A stretch of 34,523 bases of DNA from a virus (taxonomy: Duplodnaviria > Caudoviricetes): the IMG/VR virus record IMGVR_UViG_3300023293_000006, positions 1 through 34,523 of that record; one strand, 5' to 3'. Both the position numbers and the translations under genes were made by a program. Positions 13,030 through 29,957 of this stretch are shown piece after piece. The notes below the pieces were generated by a model. The model was not told where the DNA came from. It made no database searches and saw only the letters and a list, made by a program, of their open reading frames with translations. Position 1 is the stretch's first letter. The number at the start of each line of letters is the position of its first letter.

Positions 13030-16000
13030 TTATCCTTTCACGCAGAGATCGAGGACGGCCACCGCCTCGTCGTCAGCATCCAATTCGGCCGCAAGATCGG
13101 CGCGCGACTTTACCACCGCGATCTCGTTGCCTTCGCTATCAAAGCCACGGGCCACCGGCACCGCATCGAATAGATCAAACCGTCCTGGATCGTTCGGATC
13201 GAACAGCCCGCCGATCTGGCTATCATCGGCCGCAGCTCCACCCCGGCCCATCGGCTGCGACAGTCTCTGGTCCAAGCGAGTGCGCTCTGTGATAGGCTCG
13301 ATCCCATCGAACAAGCTCTGTTCCCCGGCGCTGGTCCGCTCCGTGTTGACAGTGCGACCATTGTTGCTTACATCAGGAGAGGAGGTATCCCCCATGCGAT
13401 TTTTTCTTGTAGACCGATCCATCCCAGCGCTGGAGCCGGAACCCGGTGCCATGCTGCTGCTTGGAGCCAACGGAACCTGGTCGGACATATCCCCGTCCGA
13501 GGTTCTTGCCGATGAAGGCTCGCCCGAGGTGTCCGAGGAGGTGTTTGTCTCCGTCGTGGCGCGGCTCGGCGCTTCCATGCCAGGCGTTTCCTGACCCAAG
13601 ATCGAGCGCCATTGCGGTGGCAACTTGTCCATCACCCCAGCATAGAGCGCTTCCATCTCGGCCAGCGCCTGCATCCGCTCACTCTCTGGGCGTGACAGGT
13701 CGCGGTAGACCTCATAGAACTTGTGACCGCGTGCCTCCTTTACCTCGAACATGCCGGGCACCCAGAGCTGCACCTCCCCGAGCTGTCCATCATCAAAAAC
13801 GACGGTCAGCTTGCGGTCGAAGTATCCACCCTCAACCACATTCCAGCCTTCATCGAGAACACGATAGCGCCGTGCCAGGATCGCCACGAACTCCTCGGCC
13901 GCTTCCGGCGTCGGTGCGTCCACACCACCACGCGCCACGTCAGTGACGCGGTTTGGATCGCCCGCATATTTGTCCTTGATCTTCTGCTCTGTGCGATCAC
14001 GCCCCTTGAGAGGTGCCGGTCTAGCCGTCACGCCAGCATCCCTGGCGGCAAGCTCGATTTCCTGTGTCAGCTCCAGGTGGTTGCGCTGGCCACGCGCCAT
14101 GAGATCATCCACATCACGGAAGGCTTGCGCCGCCTTGAGCCCGGCTTCGAGCTGCGCCGCCTCGGCTGGGTCGAGGTCTGGCAATCGCTCAATCCTGGGC
14201 TCGGCCACTGGCTCGATCCTGGTGTTGGCGATCTGGGCGCGCACGCCATCACCATTTACCGGGTCCGCGAAGCCTTCGAGGGGATCAGGTGCCGCTGCGC
14301 TCGAACGCGCAGGTTCTGCATTGCGTCCAGGAACGCCAGCTCCTGCCCCAGCGAGGCCATTTCGCTCAACCTCTTGTCGGACAGCATCTGCAACTCGCTG
14401 GGCGGCGTCTTTGAGACGGCCGGTTTCTTTGTAGCCTTTCGCGCCATCGTTCAACGCCTCCGATATTGGCCCGGCTCGGTGCGCCAGTTTCTGCACCGCC
14501 GCGAGGGCTTGTTCAACTTGTTGCCTGGTCTGCTTGTTGGTCGCCGTGTCCAGCCGGTTTGCTCCCGTTCCCTGGATGCGGTCGGCCCGCTCGTCCAGTG
14601 TGCGGAAAACGCTGCGATCATCTCGCATAATCCTCATGGCACTTTCCAGAACTTTGGCGCGCTCCAGGTAAAGACTTGCCACGATCTCCTGTTCCCCGAA
14701 TAGGTCGGACGTTACCTCGCGCGACACCGGAGCCTGGAGGGCTTGGGACAGGATGCTTTCAGCCTGGGCCGTGGTGTCTGGCCCGGTTCGCTTGAGGAGC
14801 TGCATCATTGCGCCGTGCATCTCTGGGTTATCCACCATCCTGCCCACAAGCTCGGCAAAGCGCTCCGGCACTACCTGATTGATGAACATATCGAACGCTT
14901 CATCGGACAGCCGCGCCAATGATTGCGCCCGAGCAATGCCAGGACCGGCAGGCAGTTGCGTGATTGCATCCGGCCGCACGCGCAGCACCCGAGCCGCATC
15001 TCGCGCCATCGCTGTTGACATGCCGTCGCTGGCCTCCGCGATATTCTTGAGTGCCGCCAGGACGCGGATATCTTCTGGCGAGAACCCGTCAGTCTCACGG
15101 AACACACGCGCCGCCATCGTGATCTCTTGGCCGGTTTGTTCCATGATCCGCCGCGCGAGGCCGGTGCGCTGGTGCCCGTCAGCGATTGCCCGCGATCCGT
15201 CGCCGTATTCATAGACGATCACGATCCCCGCGCGCTCTGGATACCACTCGGTTACGTCAAGGAGGCGCTGGGTTTGGCCACCCTCGGCCACGACATTAGA
15301 GCGGAACTGAAAAACGTCCGGCTGCACCAAAAGCTCGCGCGGGTCCACCTCCTCGATTTCGCCGTTGAGGATAGAGGATCGCGGCCGAGCGAAGATCGGT
15401 CGATCCGGCATGTCCGGCGTGCCGCCCTCGTGCGCCGCCAGAGCGGCCGTCTGGGCGCGCTCCAGGTGTTCGCGCACCTCCGGCCCGTCGCCACCGTCGG
15501 TTGCCGCCTCCTCGTCCTCCAGGTCGCGCCGGAGCTGCTGCGCGATCAAGCCCGCCTCTGCATCACCTGTCGCCTCTGCTGCCTCGATCAGCGAGCGGCG
15601 CTCGCCGCGCAGAAGGTGGCCAAGCCTGGTCGCCTGGTTTACGCCGCCACGAAACGCCTCGGGGCCATACATCGTGCCCGCGCGGATCGTGCCCCCGAGC
15701 GTGGCACCGACGGCAAAACCGAACGCGGCGTTCTCAAAGATGCTTTCCTCGGGAAGTCCGAGCTGGCGCAGGAAGGCATTGCGCGTCGGCGTGGTTCCGG
15801 CCTCCAGCGCAGCGTTGAGCACGCCCTCGATCAGCGCCGTGGCCAAGATGCCAGCGCGAGAAGCCGCACCGAAGGGAAGCGTTGCAATCGTCTCGATGTT
15901 GTCGAAACCGGCCACGAAACCGCCAGCCAGTTGCCCGCCAAGACCGCTCACGCCCCGCCCCCGAGACATGATCTCGTCGGATCGCTCGACACGCTCCAGG

Positions 16001-16389
16001 AGCGCCCCGGTGATTTCGTCGCGCCGCGCTGCCAGCGTCTCCGGCGTCACGTCCTCGGGAAGCTCGATGCCGCGCTGTTCCAGCTCCGCGAAAAGATCGG
16101 TCAGCGTGGCGTCGTCTGGGGCGAAGCGCTGCGAAGTGAGCCGCCCCGCCATTTCCAGGGAAAGCGCCTGCCCTTGGACGCGAACGCGCGCTGGGCCTGG
16201 GACTGAGATGTCGATCTCCATCTGGTCGCGAAGCGGCTGGAATATCTCGCGCTCTGTTCTGGGTCGGCTGGTTAGCTCGCCCACCTCTTGCTCGCGGCGA
16301 AACGCTGCACCGGCCACCTCGCCAAAGGTTGCGCGTGGCCCGCGCGTGGCGACGGGATCAACCGGCTGGAGCTGCACAAGTCTGGCCAT
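13030..16389 (-). CDS. Polyvalent internal virion protein with ParB-like and RelA/SpoT-like synthetase domains
   Basis: ParB-like VDP..L...FQFR...IADGHQR (~15000-15360). RelA/SpoT-like motifs PLKGRDRTEQK, TDVARG, GGYFDRK, GEVQL and GHKFYE (~13700-14020). Confidence 0.8.
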   Translation of the reverse strand: MARLVQLQPVDPVATRGPRATFGEVAGAAFRREQEVGELTSRPRTEREIFQPLRDQMEIDISVPGPARVRVQGQALSLEMAGRLTSQRFAPDDATLTDLFAELEQRGIELPEDVTPETLAARRDEITGALLERVERSDEIMSRGRGVSGLGGQLAGGFVAGFDNIETIATLPFGAASRAGILATALIEGVLNAALEAGTTPTRNAFLRQLGLPEESIFENAAFGFAVGATLGGTIRAGTMYGPEAFRGGVNQATRLGHLLRGERRSLIEAAEATGDAEAGLIAQQLRRDLEDEEAATDGGDGPEVREHLERAQTAALAAHEGGTPDMPDRPIFARPRSSILNGEIEEVDPRELLVQPDVFQFRSNVVAEGGQTQRLLDVTEWYPERAGIVIVYEYGDGSRAIADGHQRTGLARRIMEQTGQEITMAARVFRETDGFSPEDIRVLAALKNIAEASDGMSTAMARDAARVLRVRPDAITQLPAGPGIARAQSLARLSDEAFDMFINQVVPERFAELVGRMVDNPEMHGAMMQLLKRTGPDTTAQAESILSQALQAPVSREVTSDLFGEQEIVASLYLERAKVLESAMRIMRDDRSVFRTLDERADRIQGTGANRLDTATNKQTRQQVEQALAAVQKLAHRAGPISEALNDGAKGYKETGRLKDAAQRVADAVRQEVERNGLAGAGAGVPGRNAEPARSSAAAPDPLEGFADPVNGDGVRAQIANTRIEPVAEPRIERLPDLDPAEAAQLEAGLKAAQAFRDVDDLMARGQRNHLELTQEIELAARDAGVTARPAPLKGRDRTEQKIKDKYAGDPNRVTDVARGGVDAPTPEAAEEFVAILARRYRVLDEGWNVVEGGYFDRKLTVVFDDGQLGEVQLWVPGMFEVKEARGHKFYEVYRDLSRPESERMQALAEMEALYAGVMDKLPPQWRSILGQETPGMEAPSRATTETNTSSDTSGEPSSARTSDGDMSDQVPLAPSSSMAPGSGSSAGMDRSTRKNRMGDTSSPDVSNNGRTVNTERTSAGEQSLFDGIEPITERTRLDQRLSQPMGRGGAAADDSQIGGLFDPNDPGRFDLFDAVPVARGFDSEGNEIAVVKSRADLAAELDADDEAVAVLDLCVKG
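13346..13374 (+). promoter_or_regulatory. Internal antisense sigma70-type promoter
   Basis: TTGACA (13346-13351), 17-nt spacer, TACATC (13369-13374), then AGGAGAGGAGGT and an ATG. Confidence 0.7.
13394..13594 (+). CDS. Nested antisense small acidic protein (66 aa), candidate immunity protein/antitoxin
   Basis: GGAGGT SD 7 nt before ATG 13394 and a dedicated promoter. Protein MRFFLVDRSIPALEPEPG...EVSEEVFVSVVARLGASMPGVS. The host frame here is a Ser/Thr-rich linker. Confidence 0.65.
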   Translation: MRFFLVDRSIPALEPEPGAMLLLGANGTWSDISPSEVLADEGSPEVSEEVFVSVVARLGASMPGVS

Positions 16390-19749: not shown

Positions 19750-22700
19750 TTAAAACCGGATATCGTAGGTTATCGACCGCAGAAGGAATGGCATAGGCTC
19801 GATCTGCGTGATTTCCACTGTCGGCTCCTTCTGCCAGCGCCCGAGCCCGCCGATCCGCTTTGGTCCCGTGAATAGCACCTCCTCCAGCGTTGGGTCCATC
19901 AGTCCGCTTTCGTAATTCTGGAGCGATACCTGCCGCGCCCGCCCGCCGTCGTGTCCTGTGATCGCCACCGCGCCCGTGCGTTCGAGCTGGAGAAGCGCGC
20001 GGAAGATACGCATGTTCTGCATGGTCGGAGAAAGCTCGCCCCGGCCCTTGTAGGGGTGCAGCACGATCCTCGGAACCTGCTTGAGCCCGACCTCGGCCGA
20101 GGTGGCAAAGGACGCCGCGCCCAGGTCGATTGAGCCCGAGGACACCGTGAACGCGCCAAGCGGCAGGCCGTCACCATGCACCTCGACCACCTGCCCCTCA
20201 AGCCACGGATAAGGCGACACGTCGATGGTCGCGCCAGCGCCCGAGATCGAGACGCTACAATCAGACATGAACGCATCATCGAACTGCTCAAGGAAGTGCC
20301 ACGTTGCGCCGGTCAGATCGCGCTCGACCATTGCGAAGGCGTCACCGGCCTGCGTCGAGGAAAACTCCAGAGGCGTGCCTTGCGTCTTGACGCGGAAAAA
20401 GCCCGTCACCTGCTGCGCGCGGTCAATCACAACCATGGCGGCTGGCACCTGGTTGCCGTTCCGGTCAGTCCCGGTGTTGGCAACCAAAAGGATAGTCGGC
20501 TCGTCCACGTCGCGCGCCCGGCGCAGCACCAAGGATCGCGGCGACGACATGAGGTGCCCGGCCAAGAGCGACACCGGCTCTGCCGAATAGCTCTGCTCGG
20601 TGTCGGTGAACAGATACTCGCGCAGCGCTCGACCGTTGCGATCCACGAACAGCGTGCCACCCTGCACGTCCACCGGCTTTACGTTTGCGCTGGAGCCATG
20701 GCGGCTCGTGACCTTGAGTGCGATATTGTCGATGGTGATTGGCTCGTCGGGCACATAAAGCTCGGCCGAGCTGGTGAATACTTGCAGGTGCCGTCCAGGG
20801 TAAATGTTCTGGATTGTCACCTGGTCGTCAATGTTCGGTGCGACCACAATCGGAGACGCTGCCACCGGGTCTGCATCCTCCTTGAAGTCGAACAGCGCGC
20901 CCGCCCGGCTGGCCACAATCACATCAGATCGAGCCTTGAAGCCGCCCATCCAATGCCGTCCCTGATAGAACGTGCCGCAGCTCGGATAGCCGCGCGTGGC
21001 GCTCCATAGCGCGTCAAAGTCTTTCTTGCCGAACTGCTTGCGGGACAGCACCACCGTGCCGTCGCCGGTCAAAATGTCGATCACCAGGATCGGCCACGAT
21101 ATCTTGCCATCCTTGCCGGTGAATTCGACCTCAAGCTCTGCGTTCGCGTCCGATCCCTCGTTGATCCGCACGGTCACGGAGGTGATATCTGGCAGGCTTT
21201 CGATTGCCGTCTCCAGGTTCGCGGCGTTGGTCGAGGCCGTTGTTGTCCAGGTGATCTCGTCGCTGGTGGTGCCGTTGTATTCCACCAGGAGCTTGTGCCC
21301 ATTCGCCATGTCATCAAAGCGCAAGAACTGGATTTCGTTCTCGCCCCCGCCGGTGTCCTCGTCGTCAAAGGAAAACTCGGTTATGGTGTCAAACTCCAGA
21401 GGGCTTGACCGCCAGTCCTGGTCGCCACCAAGGCGCTGCACGATGTAAGGCGGCTGGTCCTGGTGGTAGAGGATCAGGGTGTCGAGGTTCGGCGCGGCCT
21501 TGATCGAGGCCACCTGCGCGGCGGTGTGCGGGATCGGTGTTGCCGCCATCCATGCGCCGCTCAATCCGTCGAACACGTCGCAGCACCCCCCGATCATTAC
21601 CAGGACATACTCGTCCTCTATGCTTGCCGTCAGGCGGTGCATGGAGAACGCCTCGACCGTGCCGCCAGAGCTGTAGCCTGCCTCGATCTGCATTTCCACG
21701 CCGGACAGCTCGACTGTGGCACCCTTGAGATCGAGCGCCGCAGCATTGTCTACGATCACACGCCAATAGCGCGCCGTTCCCAAGAGCGTGTCAGGAGCTG
21801 CGCCGAAACGTCGATCATAAGCGATATTGCCAACGGAGATGGATGCCACATCTGACCAAGTAGAGCCGTCCGAGCTGGTCTGGAGCGTGAGATTTGCCGT
21901 TGAGATACCGGCCGGGAAGCTGACGATCCGAAGATCGCGCGTATCAAACAAAGACACCGCCTCCTCGCTGCCCAAGTCCAGCCTAGCGATCTCGTATTCC
22001 GTCGCTGTGCCCACGCCTTTGGTGGCTGTCCCGCCGGAACTGTAGGCTCCAAGCGCCGAGCTGTCGAAACCGTCAAGCTCGAAGGTGTTGGCGGTCAGAA
22101 CCGTGATTGCGCCTTGGTGCCCATTGACCGAGCTGGCGAGTATTTCCTCGGCCGAGCCGCCGGTTGAATATGCGGTGAACCCGCTACTATCGGTCCCATT
22201 GAGAGAAAAGCTGTCCACGCTGATTACTGTGATCGTGTAGGTGTCGTTGTTCAACTCCGTCATACCGGAGACGCCGGTGATCTCGATCTTGTCTCCAGTC
22301 GAAAACCCATGCGCCGCAGCGGTGATAAGGCACGGATTTGCCTGCGTGGCGTTGGAGATCGACGCCGTTGATCCGCTGGGCGATCCCATGCCCTCGATCC
22401 CCTCGATCCGTACGCTGTCGCCTGTGGTGTAGCCGTGGCCCGTGGCCGTCACCACCGCGGGGTTGGCATTGCTCACGCCCGAGATCGTCGCATCCGATCC
22501 AGTCTCCAGGAGCGTGTTGCGGTCGCCGTCGGTCAGATTACCAGGCGTTCCGCCGTTCACGGCCGTGACAGTTGCGCCGCCTAGACTGATCGAGGAGATC
22601 GGGCCGCGCTGGAGTGCGCGAAACCGCCAGCCCTCGCGCCGCTTTGCCCCGCCTTGGGGCAGAGGCACCGCGTTCTCAATGATGCGCGCCGAGTTGTAGA

Positions 22701-22785
22701 AAAACGCCACATCTTCGCGGCTCCAGAGAAGCGGATCGAACTCACCGGCCGAAAGGCTTGTCTGCACATGGCGGCTGGTTGGCAT
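19750..22785 (-). CDS. Tail tubular protein B (nozzle) with inserted accessory domains
   Basis: N-terminal QTSLSAGEFDP...N..P.PQGGAKRREG and WS..RGYPS..TFYQGR motifs; TAATG overlap gives a start at 22785. Confidence 0.85.
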   Translation of the reverse strand: MPTSRHVQTSLSAGEFDPLLWSREDVAFFYNSARIIENAVPLPQGGAKRREGWRFRALQRGPISSISLGGATVTAVNGGTPGNLTDGDRNTLLETGSDATISGVSNANPAVVTATGHGYTTGDSVRIEGIEGMGSPSGSTASISNATQANPCLITAAAHGFSTGDKIEITGVSGMTELNNDTYTITVISVDSFSLNGTDSSGFTAYSTGGSAEEILASSVNGHQGAITVLTANTFELDGFDSSALGAYSSGGTATKGVGTATEYEIARLDLGSEEAVSLFDTRDLRIVSFPAGISTANLTLQTSSDGSTWSDVASISVGNIAYDRRFGAAPDTLLGTARYWRVIVDNAAALDLKGATVELSGVEMQIEAGYSSGGTVEAFSMHRLTASIEDEYVLVMIGGCCDVFDGLSGAWMAATPIPHTAAQVASIKAAPNLDTLILYHQDQPPYIVQRLGGDQDWRSSPLEFDTITEFSFDDEDTGGGENEIQFLRFDDMANGHKLLVEYNGTTSDEITWTTTASTNAANLETAIESLPDITSVTVRINEGSDANAELEVEFTGKDGKISWPILVIDILTGDGTVVLSRKQFGKKDFDALWSATRGYPSCGTFYQGRHWMGGFKARSDVIVASRAGALFDFKEDADPVAASPIVVAPNIDDQVTIQNIYPGRHLQVFTSSAELYVPDEPITIDNIALKVTSRHGSSANVKPVDVQGGTLFVDRNGRALREYLFTDTEQSYSAEPVSLLAGHLMSSPRSLVLRRARDVDEPTILLVANTGTDRNGNQVPAAMVVIDRAQQVTGFFRVKTQGTPLEFSSTQAGDAFAMVERDLTGATWHFLEQFDDAFMSDCSVSISGAGATIDVSPYPWLEGQVVEVHGDGLPLGAFTVSSGSIDLGAASFATSAEVGLKQVPRIVLHPYKGRGELSPTMQNMRIFRALLQLERTGAVAITGHDGGRARQVSLQNYESGLMDPTLEEVLFTGPKRIGGLGRWQKEPTVEITQIEPMPFLLRSITYDIRF

Positions 22786-28861: not shown

Positions 28862-29213
28862 CTCCCTGTGTTCGCCCTGCCCAATCGGCCTTTACCACCG
28901 CACGCGCCGCCGCTCGTCGGTTGCCCCCCTCTTGATCGCTCGATCCCTGGAGGTGGTGCGGCTTGAGATCGAGGTGGAACTCCTGAACGTCGATGCGGTG
29001 CCAGATACCAGCGAGGATCGGCAGCTTGCCGGACACTGTTCGGATGAAGGTCGAGCGGCGCATGTGGATGCGGCCCTTGCTGTCGGTCCTGACCACGCCA
29101 GAACGCGGCCACACGTCGTCGTCATGCACCATGAAGCTGGGCAACATCGCCACGTTGCCTTTGCAGGCGCGCATTAGCGACGGGATGGACAGGTCAAGAT
29201 CGGGTTCGGTCAT
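28722..29213 (-). CDS. Hypothetical protein (3' end uncertain)
   Basis: ATGA-coupled to VRR-NUC; the last 140 nt overlap the next gene. Confidence 0.5.
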   Translation of the reverse strand: MTEPDLDLSIPSLMRACKGNVAMLPSFMVHDDDVWPRSGVVRTDSKGRIHMRRSTFIRTVSGKLPILAGIWHRIDVQEFHLDLKPHHLQGSSDQEGGNRRAAARAVVKADWAGRTQGDDGYGNAPSGDHRQQDVERDVAEAKARGTSGSVGSTVFARDGGDDG

Positions 29214-29626
29214 GTAAGCCCCCATTGTTTCAAAATGTCCTCGGCGTCGGTCACGGATCGCACCACGGCATAAGGCGCACCGGCCCGCGCCAGATCACGC
29301 TGGATATCCTTTTGCGCATCGCTCTGTCGGCTCTTGGCCTTGATCTCCAGGAAGAACGCGCGGCCCTGCCAGATGATCTCGATATCCGGCCAGCCTGCCT
29401 TGGTGCCCAGCTTGCGCGCCTTGGCGATCTGGCGAGCCGCCTCGGGTCCGGCCATGTCCAGCTCGTTCGGGCTGTGGTGATAGATCGCGTCGGCCGGTAG
29501 CGCGAGATCTAGGAGCTGGAGGATCGCCTTGTGGATCGGCCCCTCGCGGTCCTGGCGCGGCGCGCTGTGGTCGCCGTCGGCCTTGTAGAACGCCTGGAGC
29601 TGGGCGGCTGTCATTCGGTCAGCCAT
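29210..29626 (-). CDS. VRR-NUC domain nuclease
   Basis: HHSPNE...GTKAGWPDI...FLEIK...QSDAQ...VVRSV. Confidence 0.85.
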   Translation of the reverse strand: MADRMTAAQLQAFYKADGDHSAPRQDREGPIHKAILQLLDLALPADAIYHHSPNELDMAGPEAARQIAKARKLGTKAGWPDIEIIWQGRAFFLEIKAKSRQSDAQKDIQRDLARAGAPYAVVRSVTDAEDILKQWGLT

Positions 29627-29957
29627 TGGACACCGCCAGGCGCAAGCGCCGATGCGTGCGGCGTTTCTGGTTCTCCAGGTGCGTTACCAGCTCCAGGTGG
29701 TTCGGGTTGCAGCACAAGCGATTGTCGCAGAGATGATCCACCTGCTTCTTGCCATGGATGAAGCCGTGAAAGTGGACGTAGGACACCAGATGCACCGCGA
29801 CGGTCTGGCCATCCAGGCACATGCGGCCATATCCGCCACCGCGCCCATTGCCCGAGGTTGGCCCTTGCCATTCCCAGCATCCGGTTTGCTCGTTCATCTC
29901 AACGCGCGCCATGATCTTGCCGATCACCCGTTCGCGCCTTCCCTGGTCTGGCGTCAT
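29619..29957 (-). CDS. HNH endonuclease
   Basis: CWEWQG...GYG...VHLVSY...VDHLCDNRLCCNPNHLELVTHLEN. Confidence 0.9.
   Translation of the reverse strand: MTPDQGRRERVIGKIMARVEMNEQTGCWEWQGPTSGNGRGGGYGRMCLDGQTVAVHLVSYVHFHGFIHGKKQVDHLCDNRLCCNPNHLELVTHLENQKRRTHRRLRLAVSNG

Follow-up and report, generated by a model that had tools for sequence, protein, structure and literature searches.

How might a phage carry a toxic enzyme in the middle of one of its virion proteins when no immunity gene is annotated for it? The question is raised by the virus record IMGVR_UViG_3300023293_000006 (Caudoviricetes), the whole 34,523-nucleotide stretch of which was analysed and is referred to here as the window. A preliminary description of this DNA had proposed that a RelA/SpoT-type toxin is neutralized by an immunity gene hidden antisense within the toxin's own coding sequence.

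The host gene and its synthetase domain

The window is a complete, GC-rich virus record of 34.5 kb with terminal repeats. Salt-lake metagenomes are its best-matching sequencing runs and may be its source, and most of its relatives in bacterial genomes come from alphaproteobacteria. The gene content is podovirus-like, including a terminase, a head-tail connector, a capsid protein, tail proteins, an internal virion protein (phrog_418), a beta-helix tail protein, and an amidase, together with three large genes encoding 930, 1119, and 823 aa, of which the 823-aa one belongs to the virion structural family phrog_684. Elsewhere in the window, a tail protein (19750-22785) matches the E1_FCCH domain of ubiquitin-activating enzyme (E 1e-23), a DUF3560 protein is encoded at 659-1513, and two endonuclease-like genes (29210-29957) have the terminase on one side and the head-tail connector on the other.

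The 1119-aa ORF (13030-16389, minus strand), hereafter the host gene, likely encodes an internal virion protein of the ejection type. Tail genes (phrog_394 and phrog_376) and phrog_418 come before it, and phrog_684 follows; the host gene likely occupies the ejection-protein slot, and it is this position that points to packaging of its product. Ejection proteins enter the cell together with the phage DNA. The conserved middle region of the protein (aa 342-661; 14407-15366, minus strand) matches phrog_10691 (E 1e-46) and phrog_21 (E 8.5e-22), and no Pfam match was obtained for the host protein, middle region included. Synthetase-bearing host proteins of other loci match PF18763 (ddrB-ParB), related carriers match ddrB-ParB, LPD22, LPD38, and ART-PolyVal (PF18763, PF18857, PF18760), and the middle region of the window's protein is probably a DdrB-like ParB region.

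The RelA/SpoT-like domain, originally placed at about 14020-13700, is indeed present, although its actual extent is larger (13600-14127, minus strand; about aa 754-930). By both sequence and fold match to 6OX6_A, it is a Tas1-like small alarmone synthetase domain: comparison with Tas1 gave E 7.9e-10 by phmmer and E 7.2e-18 by profile, and 6OX6_A was the top Foldseek match (E 1.7e-9, TMq 0.68) of a model with a pLDDT of 95.5. Pfam contains no match for the domain. The synthetase motifs KxxxRxxxK, DxxR, acceptor Tyr, and ExQ are intact, aligned to those of Tas1, and conserved, and residues K42, K50, D64, R67, Y103, D105, K107, E119, and Y139 (domain numbering) are invariant in 52 rows, for most of which Y103, D105, K107, and E119 belonged to the search pattern. 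Putative roles of single residues are read from their positions. The domain is likely toxic, and its product may well be (p)ppApp. A profile search returned 1971 proteins at E <= 0.001, the best 150 of which were examined, and no cultured GenBank phages carrying the domain were found.

The nested antisense gene

The host frame continues past the synthetase domain as a Ser/Thr-rich linker, the opposite strand of which had been described as holding a complete expression unit, and each element of that unit was located. A sigma-70-like promoter (13346-13374, plus strand) is formed by TTGACA (13346-13351) and TACATC (13369-13374) at a spacing of 17 nt; a Shine-Dalgarno (SD) sequence, AGGAGAGGAGGT (13375-13386, plus strand), lies 7 nt ahead of the start codon; and a 66-aa ORF, encoding a predicted Tis1-like immunity protein with 10 D/E versus 3 R, extends from an ATG at 13394 to a TGA ending at 13594 (plus strand). 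The ORF is wholly within the minus-strand host gene, and its end is 5 nt from that of the synthetase domain, the small gene being located behind the domain and outside it. A standard promoter scan omits the nested promoter because its -10 box is without the last T, a feature that the available portion of PMC7703639 reports as common in alphaproteobacterial promoters.

An open antisense frame is in itself no evidence of a gene, as a GC-rich genome has many. The genome contains a single spaced unit of promoter, SD, and ATG, and 0/100 shuffles contain one at <=2 mismatches, a result that shows rarity only since the pattern was written from the nested site; a looser two-strand scan of the genome also yields the nested unit only. 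Among the long ORFs of the sampled loci (~977 kb), all 31 nested antisense units with promoter/SD signals belong to this one small-protein family, and no other nested antisense family was found there. Among 40 non-redundant homologues, SD-like sequences accompany 37, as compared with 60/912 control antisense ATGs, a count inflated because starts were chosen partly by SD, and promoter-like sites accompany 26, mostly 19 nt ahead of the start, as compared with 27/912 control ATGs. No RNA dataset is listed among 24 runs, which says nothing about expression. At locus L016 (4284-4715), on the contig shared with L007, this virion protein has an in-frame insertion of a GNAT acetyltransferase domain immediately behind the nested promoter.

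The 66-aa protein has no Pfam, PHROG, or NCBIfam family and is absent from a collection of 15 billion proteins in which the host protein is present. The expectation that gene callers would miss such a gene was correct for the window's locus, but 29 family members have been called elsewhere.

Selection was measured across the 40 non-redundant nested loci. In the register of the two frames, third codon positions coincide, so that GAN reads as TCN (Ser) in the host frame, in keeping with the origin of the Ser-rich frame given in the preliminary description; with wobble positions set on wobble positions, identity cannot separate the frames (0.33 vs 0.31). The nature of the substitutions is more informative, with mismatch BLOSUM values of -0.62 in the antisense frame against a background of -1.39, and of -0.87 against -0.94 in the host frame. 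When the alignment was made on the host frame instead, the values were still -0.75 vs -0.85, with conservative substitution enriched in the antisense frame. In addition, one Trp is invariant (40/40), which fixes C at the host wobble position although the host residue there varies among 10 amino acids (background 31%). The same antisense frame over the synthetase contains 203 stops in 6760 codons, affecting 40/40 sequences, and the small-protein family is itself diverse, with a mean identity of about 29%. The conservative substitutions and the invariant Trp favor the antisense frame over the host frame and uphold the proposal that the plus-strand ORF is under selection; the 66-aa ORF is almost certainly a real gene.

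The opposite reading would treat the ORF as a shadow mirroring a conserved host linker, with only the promoter of consequence, as a source of antisense RNA against the toxin message. Such a reading draws on the nearly equal identity of the two frames and on the finding of no terminator-like site after the ORF within 13200-14300, so that a transcript could cross the synthetase. It is nevertheless very improbable, as homologues occur free-standing, on the same strand, or fused where the host frame is absent, the SD and start are kept, and the fold and co-fold are confident, all in addition to the Trp and the substitution pattern.

Arrangement, linkage, and loss of the cassette

The gene is intact in 8/8 close loci, and a homologue was found in 17/19 loci with domain identity down to 37%, one of them cut by a contig end; the remaining two have a terminal domain. 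For a wider survey, a motif pattern was used since the diverse alignment A5 is too variable for locus scans, biasing the sample toward YxDRK...E[IV]QxW domains. It gave 118 viral loci, all true domain matches, of which 80 were scored and 38, with 663 bases each, were left out. Where the domain is internal, an antisense homologue in the same register was present in 65/65 scored loci, a count that includes near-duplicates and is partly circular because the small-protein profile was built iteratively from the same ORFs. Where the domain is terminal (15 loci), there were seven convergent free-standing genes, one same-strand gene (L115), and seven loci without a detected homologue, and the convergent loci have stops in the host frame in 7/7 cases. 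The seven partnerless viral loci keep the motif residues, and six of them form one long-branched clade. Terminal synthetases with motifs and no detected partner were observed at L051, L053, L059, L065, L084, L096, L174, and L088, mostly of one long-branched clade.

Bacterial genomes and bins gave 32 pattern matches, 30 of them with the synthetase: 23 nested, three convergent, two same-strand (L176, from the same prophage as L115, and L191), one partnerless, and one cut off (L181). L177 and L178 share one contig, and several members of the set duplicate viral loci or prophages; L182 and L197 were rejected as chance pattern matches. In-frame fusions of the small protein were also found, in P0091 (E 1e-10) and P0149 (E 3.5e-4). 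These un-nested forms, whether convergent with stops in the host frame, same-strand, or fused, are independent support for the small gene. Of the proteins that represent 50% clusters and have the domain internally, 94/103 match the linker profile, a generous figure as scoring was without composition correction. On a quick, unrooted tree, nesting needs nine changes, only two of them forced by strong branches.

Several individual arrangements merit mention. In a Pseudovibrio contig (L177:2633-4410), one long ORF contains two tandem synthetase domains with a nested antisense copy behind each, while in Aminobacter ciceronei (L194:603-1547, plus strand; also L074), two tandem, divergent small-domain copies occupy an open frame outside the host gene, much like an orphan poly-immunity gene. 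The synthetase is found at the C-terminus of portal or portal-like proteins at L033:1389-4204, assigned by eye, and L081:500-2746, which matches Portal_Mu. A same-strand 70-aa ORF overlapping the stop of L033 appears alike by eye and was not counted as a homologue (hhalign probability 0.5 and 2.7). At L187 (1927-2306), the synthetase is split over two frames and the antisense gene is intact, reflecting either an assembly error or a pseudogene.

The two genes are closely linked. In 200 sequences, 173/177 small-protein matches lie within 400 nt of the synthetase, and the other four come from a single Aminobacter prophage that has two additional copies and was encountered twice. Loci that are more alike in one partner tend to be more alike in the other (Spearman 0.63 for pairwise identities), although kinship alone could produce the correlation. 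In agreement with the proposed pairing, the ORF is conserved beside the synthetase and is missing or destroyed where the synthetase is absent (L036-L038, L040, and phage SI2). Among relatives 93-96% identical in the middle region, the cassette has been lost in frame. In L036 and L038, 13527-14197 and 13201-13473 are missing with the frame kept, and the 53-nt scrap of the small gene left between these deletions (13474-13526), for which matching joints were found in run X11, shows that an intact cassette was once present. L037 encodes the same deleted protein, L040 retains none of the small gene, and the SI2 homologue has neither synthetase nor small gene. Both forms are present in run X11, at contig depths of 531-561 for the deleted one and 66-96 for the intact one, depth not being a share of cells. 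The 801-aa deleted protein represents 11/15 of the cluster members listed, indicating that the cassette is dispensable. The suggestion that toxin and immunity gene cannot separate was therefore overstated, and the existence of free-standing, same-strand, and fused forms points to nesting as one state of a mobile cassette.

Four cultured alphaproteobacteria have the cassette in prophage-like regions, ~13-14 kb from the same portal gene, with the nested gene as the sole small-gene copy in each genome. Cultured carriers include Roseobacter insulae, Salipiger marinus, Palleronia pelagia, and Pleomorphomonas koreensis. Such regions could be taken to mean that the cassette, though located in a virion gene, serves prophages as a toxin-antitoxin or abortive-infection module acting in the producing cell rather than delivered by the virion, an arrangement compatible with the immunity role and reminiscent of phage toxSAS such as PhRel, which defend lysogens (PMC8118318, available portion). 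This is unlikely, however: no separate synthetase promoter or start was noticed in the course of the other analyses, synthetase carriers range across portal, head, and polyvalent proteins, and no tyrosine integrase match exists in the window's record. Delivery of the synthetase by the virion is considered fairly likely.

Predicted binding and the proposed role of the pair

The 66-aa protein was modeled with a pLDDT of 92.8 as four strands and two helices. In a fold comparison against 48,161 chains, Tis1 (6OX6_B) ranked fourth (Z 3.8, rmsd 3.1, 57 residues aligned, 7% identity); no chain scored above Z 4.3, and the match is weak alone, being tied with unrelated folds, yet it is notable because Tis1's partner, 6OX6_A, is the synthetase's best match. 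Neither Foldseek nor sequence profiles found Tis1 from the 66-aa protein, Foldseek returned nothing from PDB and BFVD at E <= 0.001, no meaningful PDB sequence match was found, and the ESM Atlas gave only 0.76 hits.

Co-folding of the 66-aa protein with the synthetase, a check suggested in the preliminary description, gave 0.74 versus 0.03 for the best control, with the mark reached by 116/157 solved complexes and 2/215 mismatched pairs. The runs share at least 98% of contacts, and the partner pLDDT is at least 89. The interface includes K50, K54, Y103, D105, K107, K131, Y139, and R143 of the synthetase, its basic patch among them, and acidic residues of the small protein, and D64, E119, and Q121 are not among the listed contacts. 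The small protein is thereby predicted to sit on the likely acceptor-nucleotide site, although the co-fold may owe its success to likeness to the solved Tas1-Tis1 complex (6OX6). It is probably an inhibitor of the adjacent synthetase.

Inhibition at the acceptor site, as opposed to the donor site, has reportedly been studied by Dominguez-Molina and colleagues. According to the available portion of PMC11782079, Tis1-like domains block the acceptor site of (pp)pApp makers, and for tRNA-modifying enzymes the block is at the donor site; the modeled complex would fit the former class. The same binding pair might instead involve an enzyme that makes (p)ppGpp, or a low, non-lethal amount of alarmone that tunes host transcription at entry, with the small protein serving as an off-switch and not as immunity. 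SaEAS (8VX3), the next Foldseek match of the synthetase, is almost level with Tas1, has a higher TM-score, and is a (p)ppGpp maker (PMC12691689, available portion), and Iyer et al. proposed that RelA/SpoT domains of polyvalent proteins trigger an alarmone-like response (PMC5512222, available portion). The association of acceptor-site occlusion by Tis1-like proteins with (pp)pApp makers speaks against a (p)ppGpp product, and a lethal activity would accord with the near-obligate partnering and the co-loss; this alternative is rather improbable.

Several known systems resemble the pair in part. The closest is Tas1 (Apk1)-Tis1 of Pseudomonas aeruginosa PA14 (6OX6), with Tas1 the top sequence and fold match of the synthetase, Tis1 among the small protein's top folds, and acceptor-site binding predicted in common. 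Tas1, however, is a type VI effector that begins with PAAR, ends with the toxin, and has its immunity gene expressed along with it, and Tis1-like immunity genes follow their toxins on the same strand, an order seen here only at L115/L176 and L191, whereas in the window the domain is internal to a phage protein, with 189 aa beyond it, and its partner is encoded antisense inside the host gene under a separate promoter. The Apk2-IapK/BcTis1-Aph1 MuF polymorphic toxins of prophages likewise pair a phage head-associated synthetase with a small protein inhibitor, but, in the available portions of PMC10083569 and PMC12226406, Apk2 is C-terminal with its immunity genes after it, while the window's protein is without MuF and has no hydrolase gene seen beside it. 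Neither PAAR (Apk1) nor MuF (Apk2) domains were found in the host protein by Pfam, PHROG, or NCBIfam, and its domain architecture sets it apart from both Apk1 and Apk2. Those polyvalent proteins of phages that carry RelA/SpoT and DdrB-ParB domains are similarly multidomain and thought to be delivered at entry; the available portion of PMC5512222 names no inhibitor, and its main text is without the terms "opposite strand" and "promoter". These carriers may already appear among the Apk1 homologues listed with PMC12691689 and in the polyvalent-protein supplements.

Genes within toxin genes also have precedents. The Rpn gene-within-gene antitoxins (10.1101/2023.05.02.539157, available portion; PMC10400984) place a small antitoxin inside the toxin gene, but RpnS is the toxin's own C-terminal piece in the same strand and frame (PMC10400984), while the window's product is unrelated in sequence and on the opposite strand. 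In P. aeruginosa, olg1 is a translated antisense gene within the toxin gene tle3 (PMC8850804, available portion); it is young and nearly species-restricted, and the paper is without the words "immunity" and "antitoxin", whereas the present family is diverse and also un-nested. No published nested antisense immunity gene was found in the literature searched, which covers few subscription papers.

Taken as a whole, conservation, antisense-frame selection, co-loss, and the co-fold support the proposed toxin/immunity pair with its antisense nested immunity gene, and it is probable that the 66-aa nested gene encodes a Tis1-like immunity protein that plugs the acceptor-nucleotide site of a Tas1-like domain, itself a toxic maker of alarmone, probably (p)ppApp. 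The synthetase would be made only from the late virion operon, with the immunity gene transcribed in the opposite direction from its own host sigma-70-type promoter; with this orientation and promoter, the antidote would be present before and during virion-protein synthesis, as well as in lysogens with a silent late operon. On entering a new cell with the virion, the synthetase would act until the injected DNA yields antidote. With third codon positions in register, translation of the host frame across the immunity gene can yield a Ser/Thr linker, and the cassette may have arisen by such read-through of a convergent antidote gene. Synthetase and antidote would then form an in-frame cassette, insertable mid-protein in different virion or polyvalent proteins and deletable without breaking them.

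It is conceivable, though doubtful, that such virion-borne cassettes are widespread and turn infection into a timer, the poison traveling as protein and the antidote only as DNA. If the DNA enters and is transcribed, a brief alarmone pulse would serve takeover; if host defenses destroy the DNA, no antidote would be made and the cell would be poisoned. The antisense transcript, continuing unterminated, might in addition suppress toxin mRNA from leaky expression, and it would be nesting that allows these cassettes a mid-protein position in polyvalent proteins.

If the preferred reading of an immunity gene nested within its toxin is true, the locus represents a natural protein antitoxin encoded antisense wholly within its toxin's gene, in a large family, and would explain how toxic enzymes can occupy the middle of virion or polyvalent proteins for which no immunity gene is annotated. 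The lysogen candidates among cultured alphaproteobacteria make the role of virion-associated alarmone synthetases testable. Cloning such a synthetase domain would need the nested gene, which a recoded synthetic copy would lose, and "low-complexity linkers" behind enzyme domains would become a signal for hidden genes. Sequence other than this linker was also observed after the synthetase: P0017, P0056, and P0153 continue without the linker signature, and in P0100 a zeta-toxin/AAA domain follows directly.
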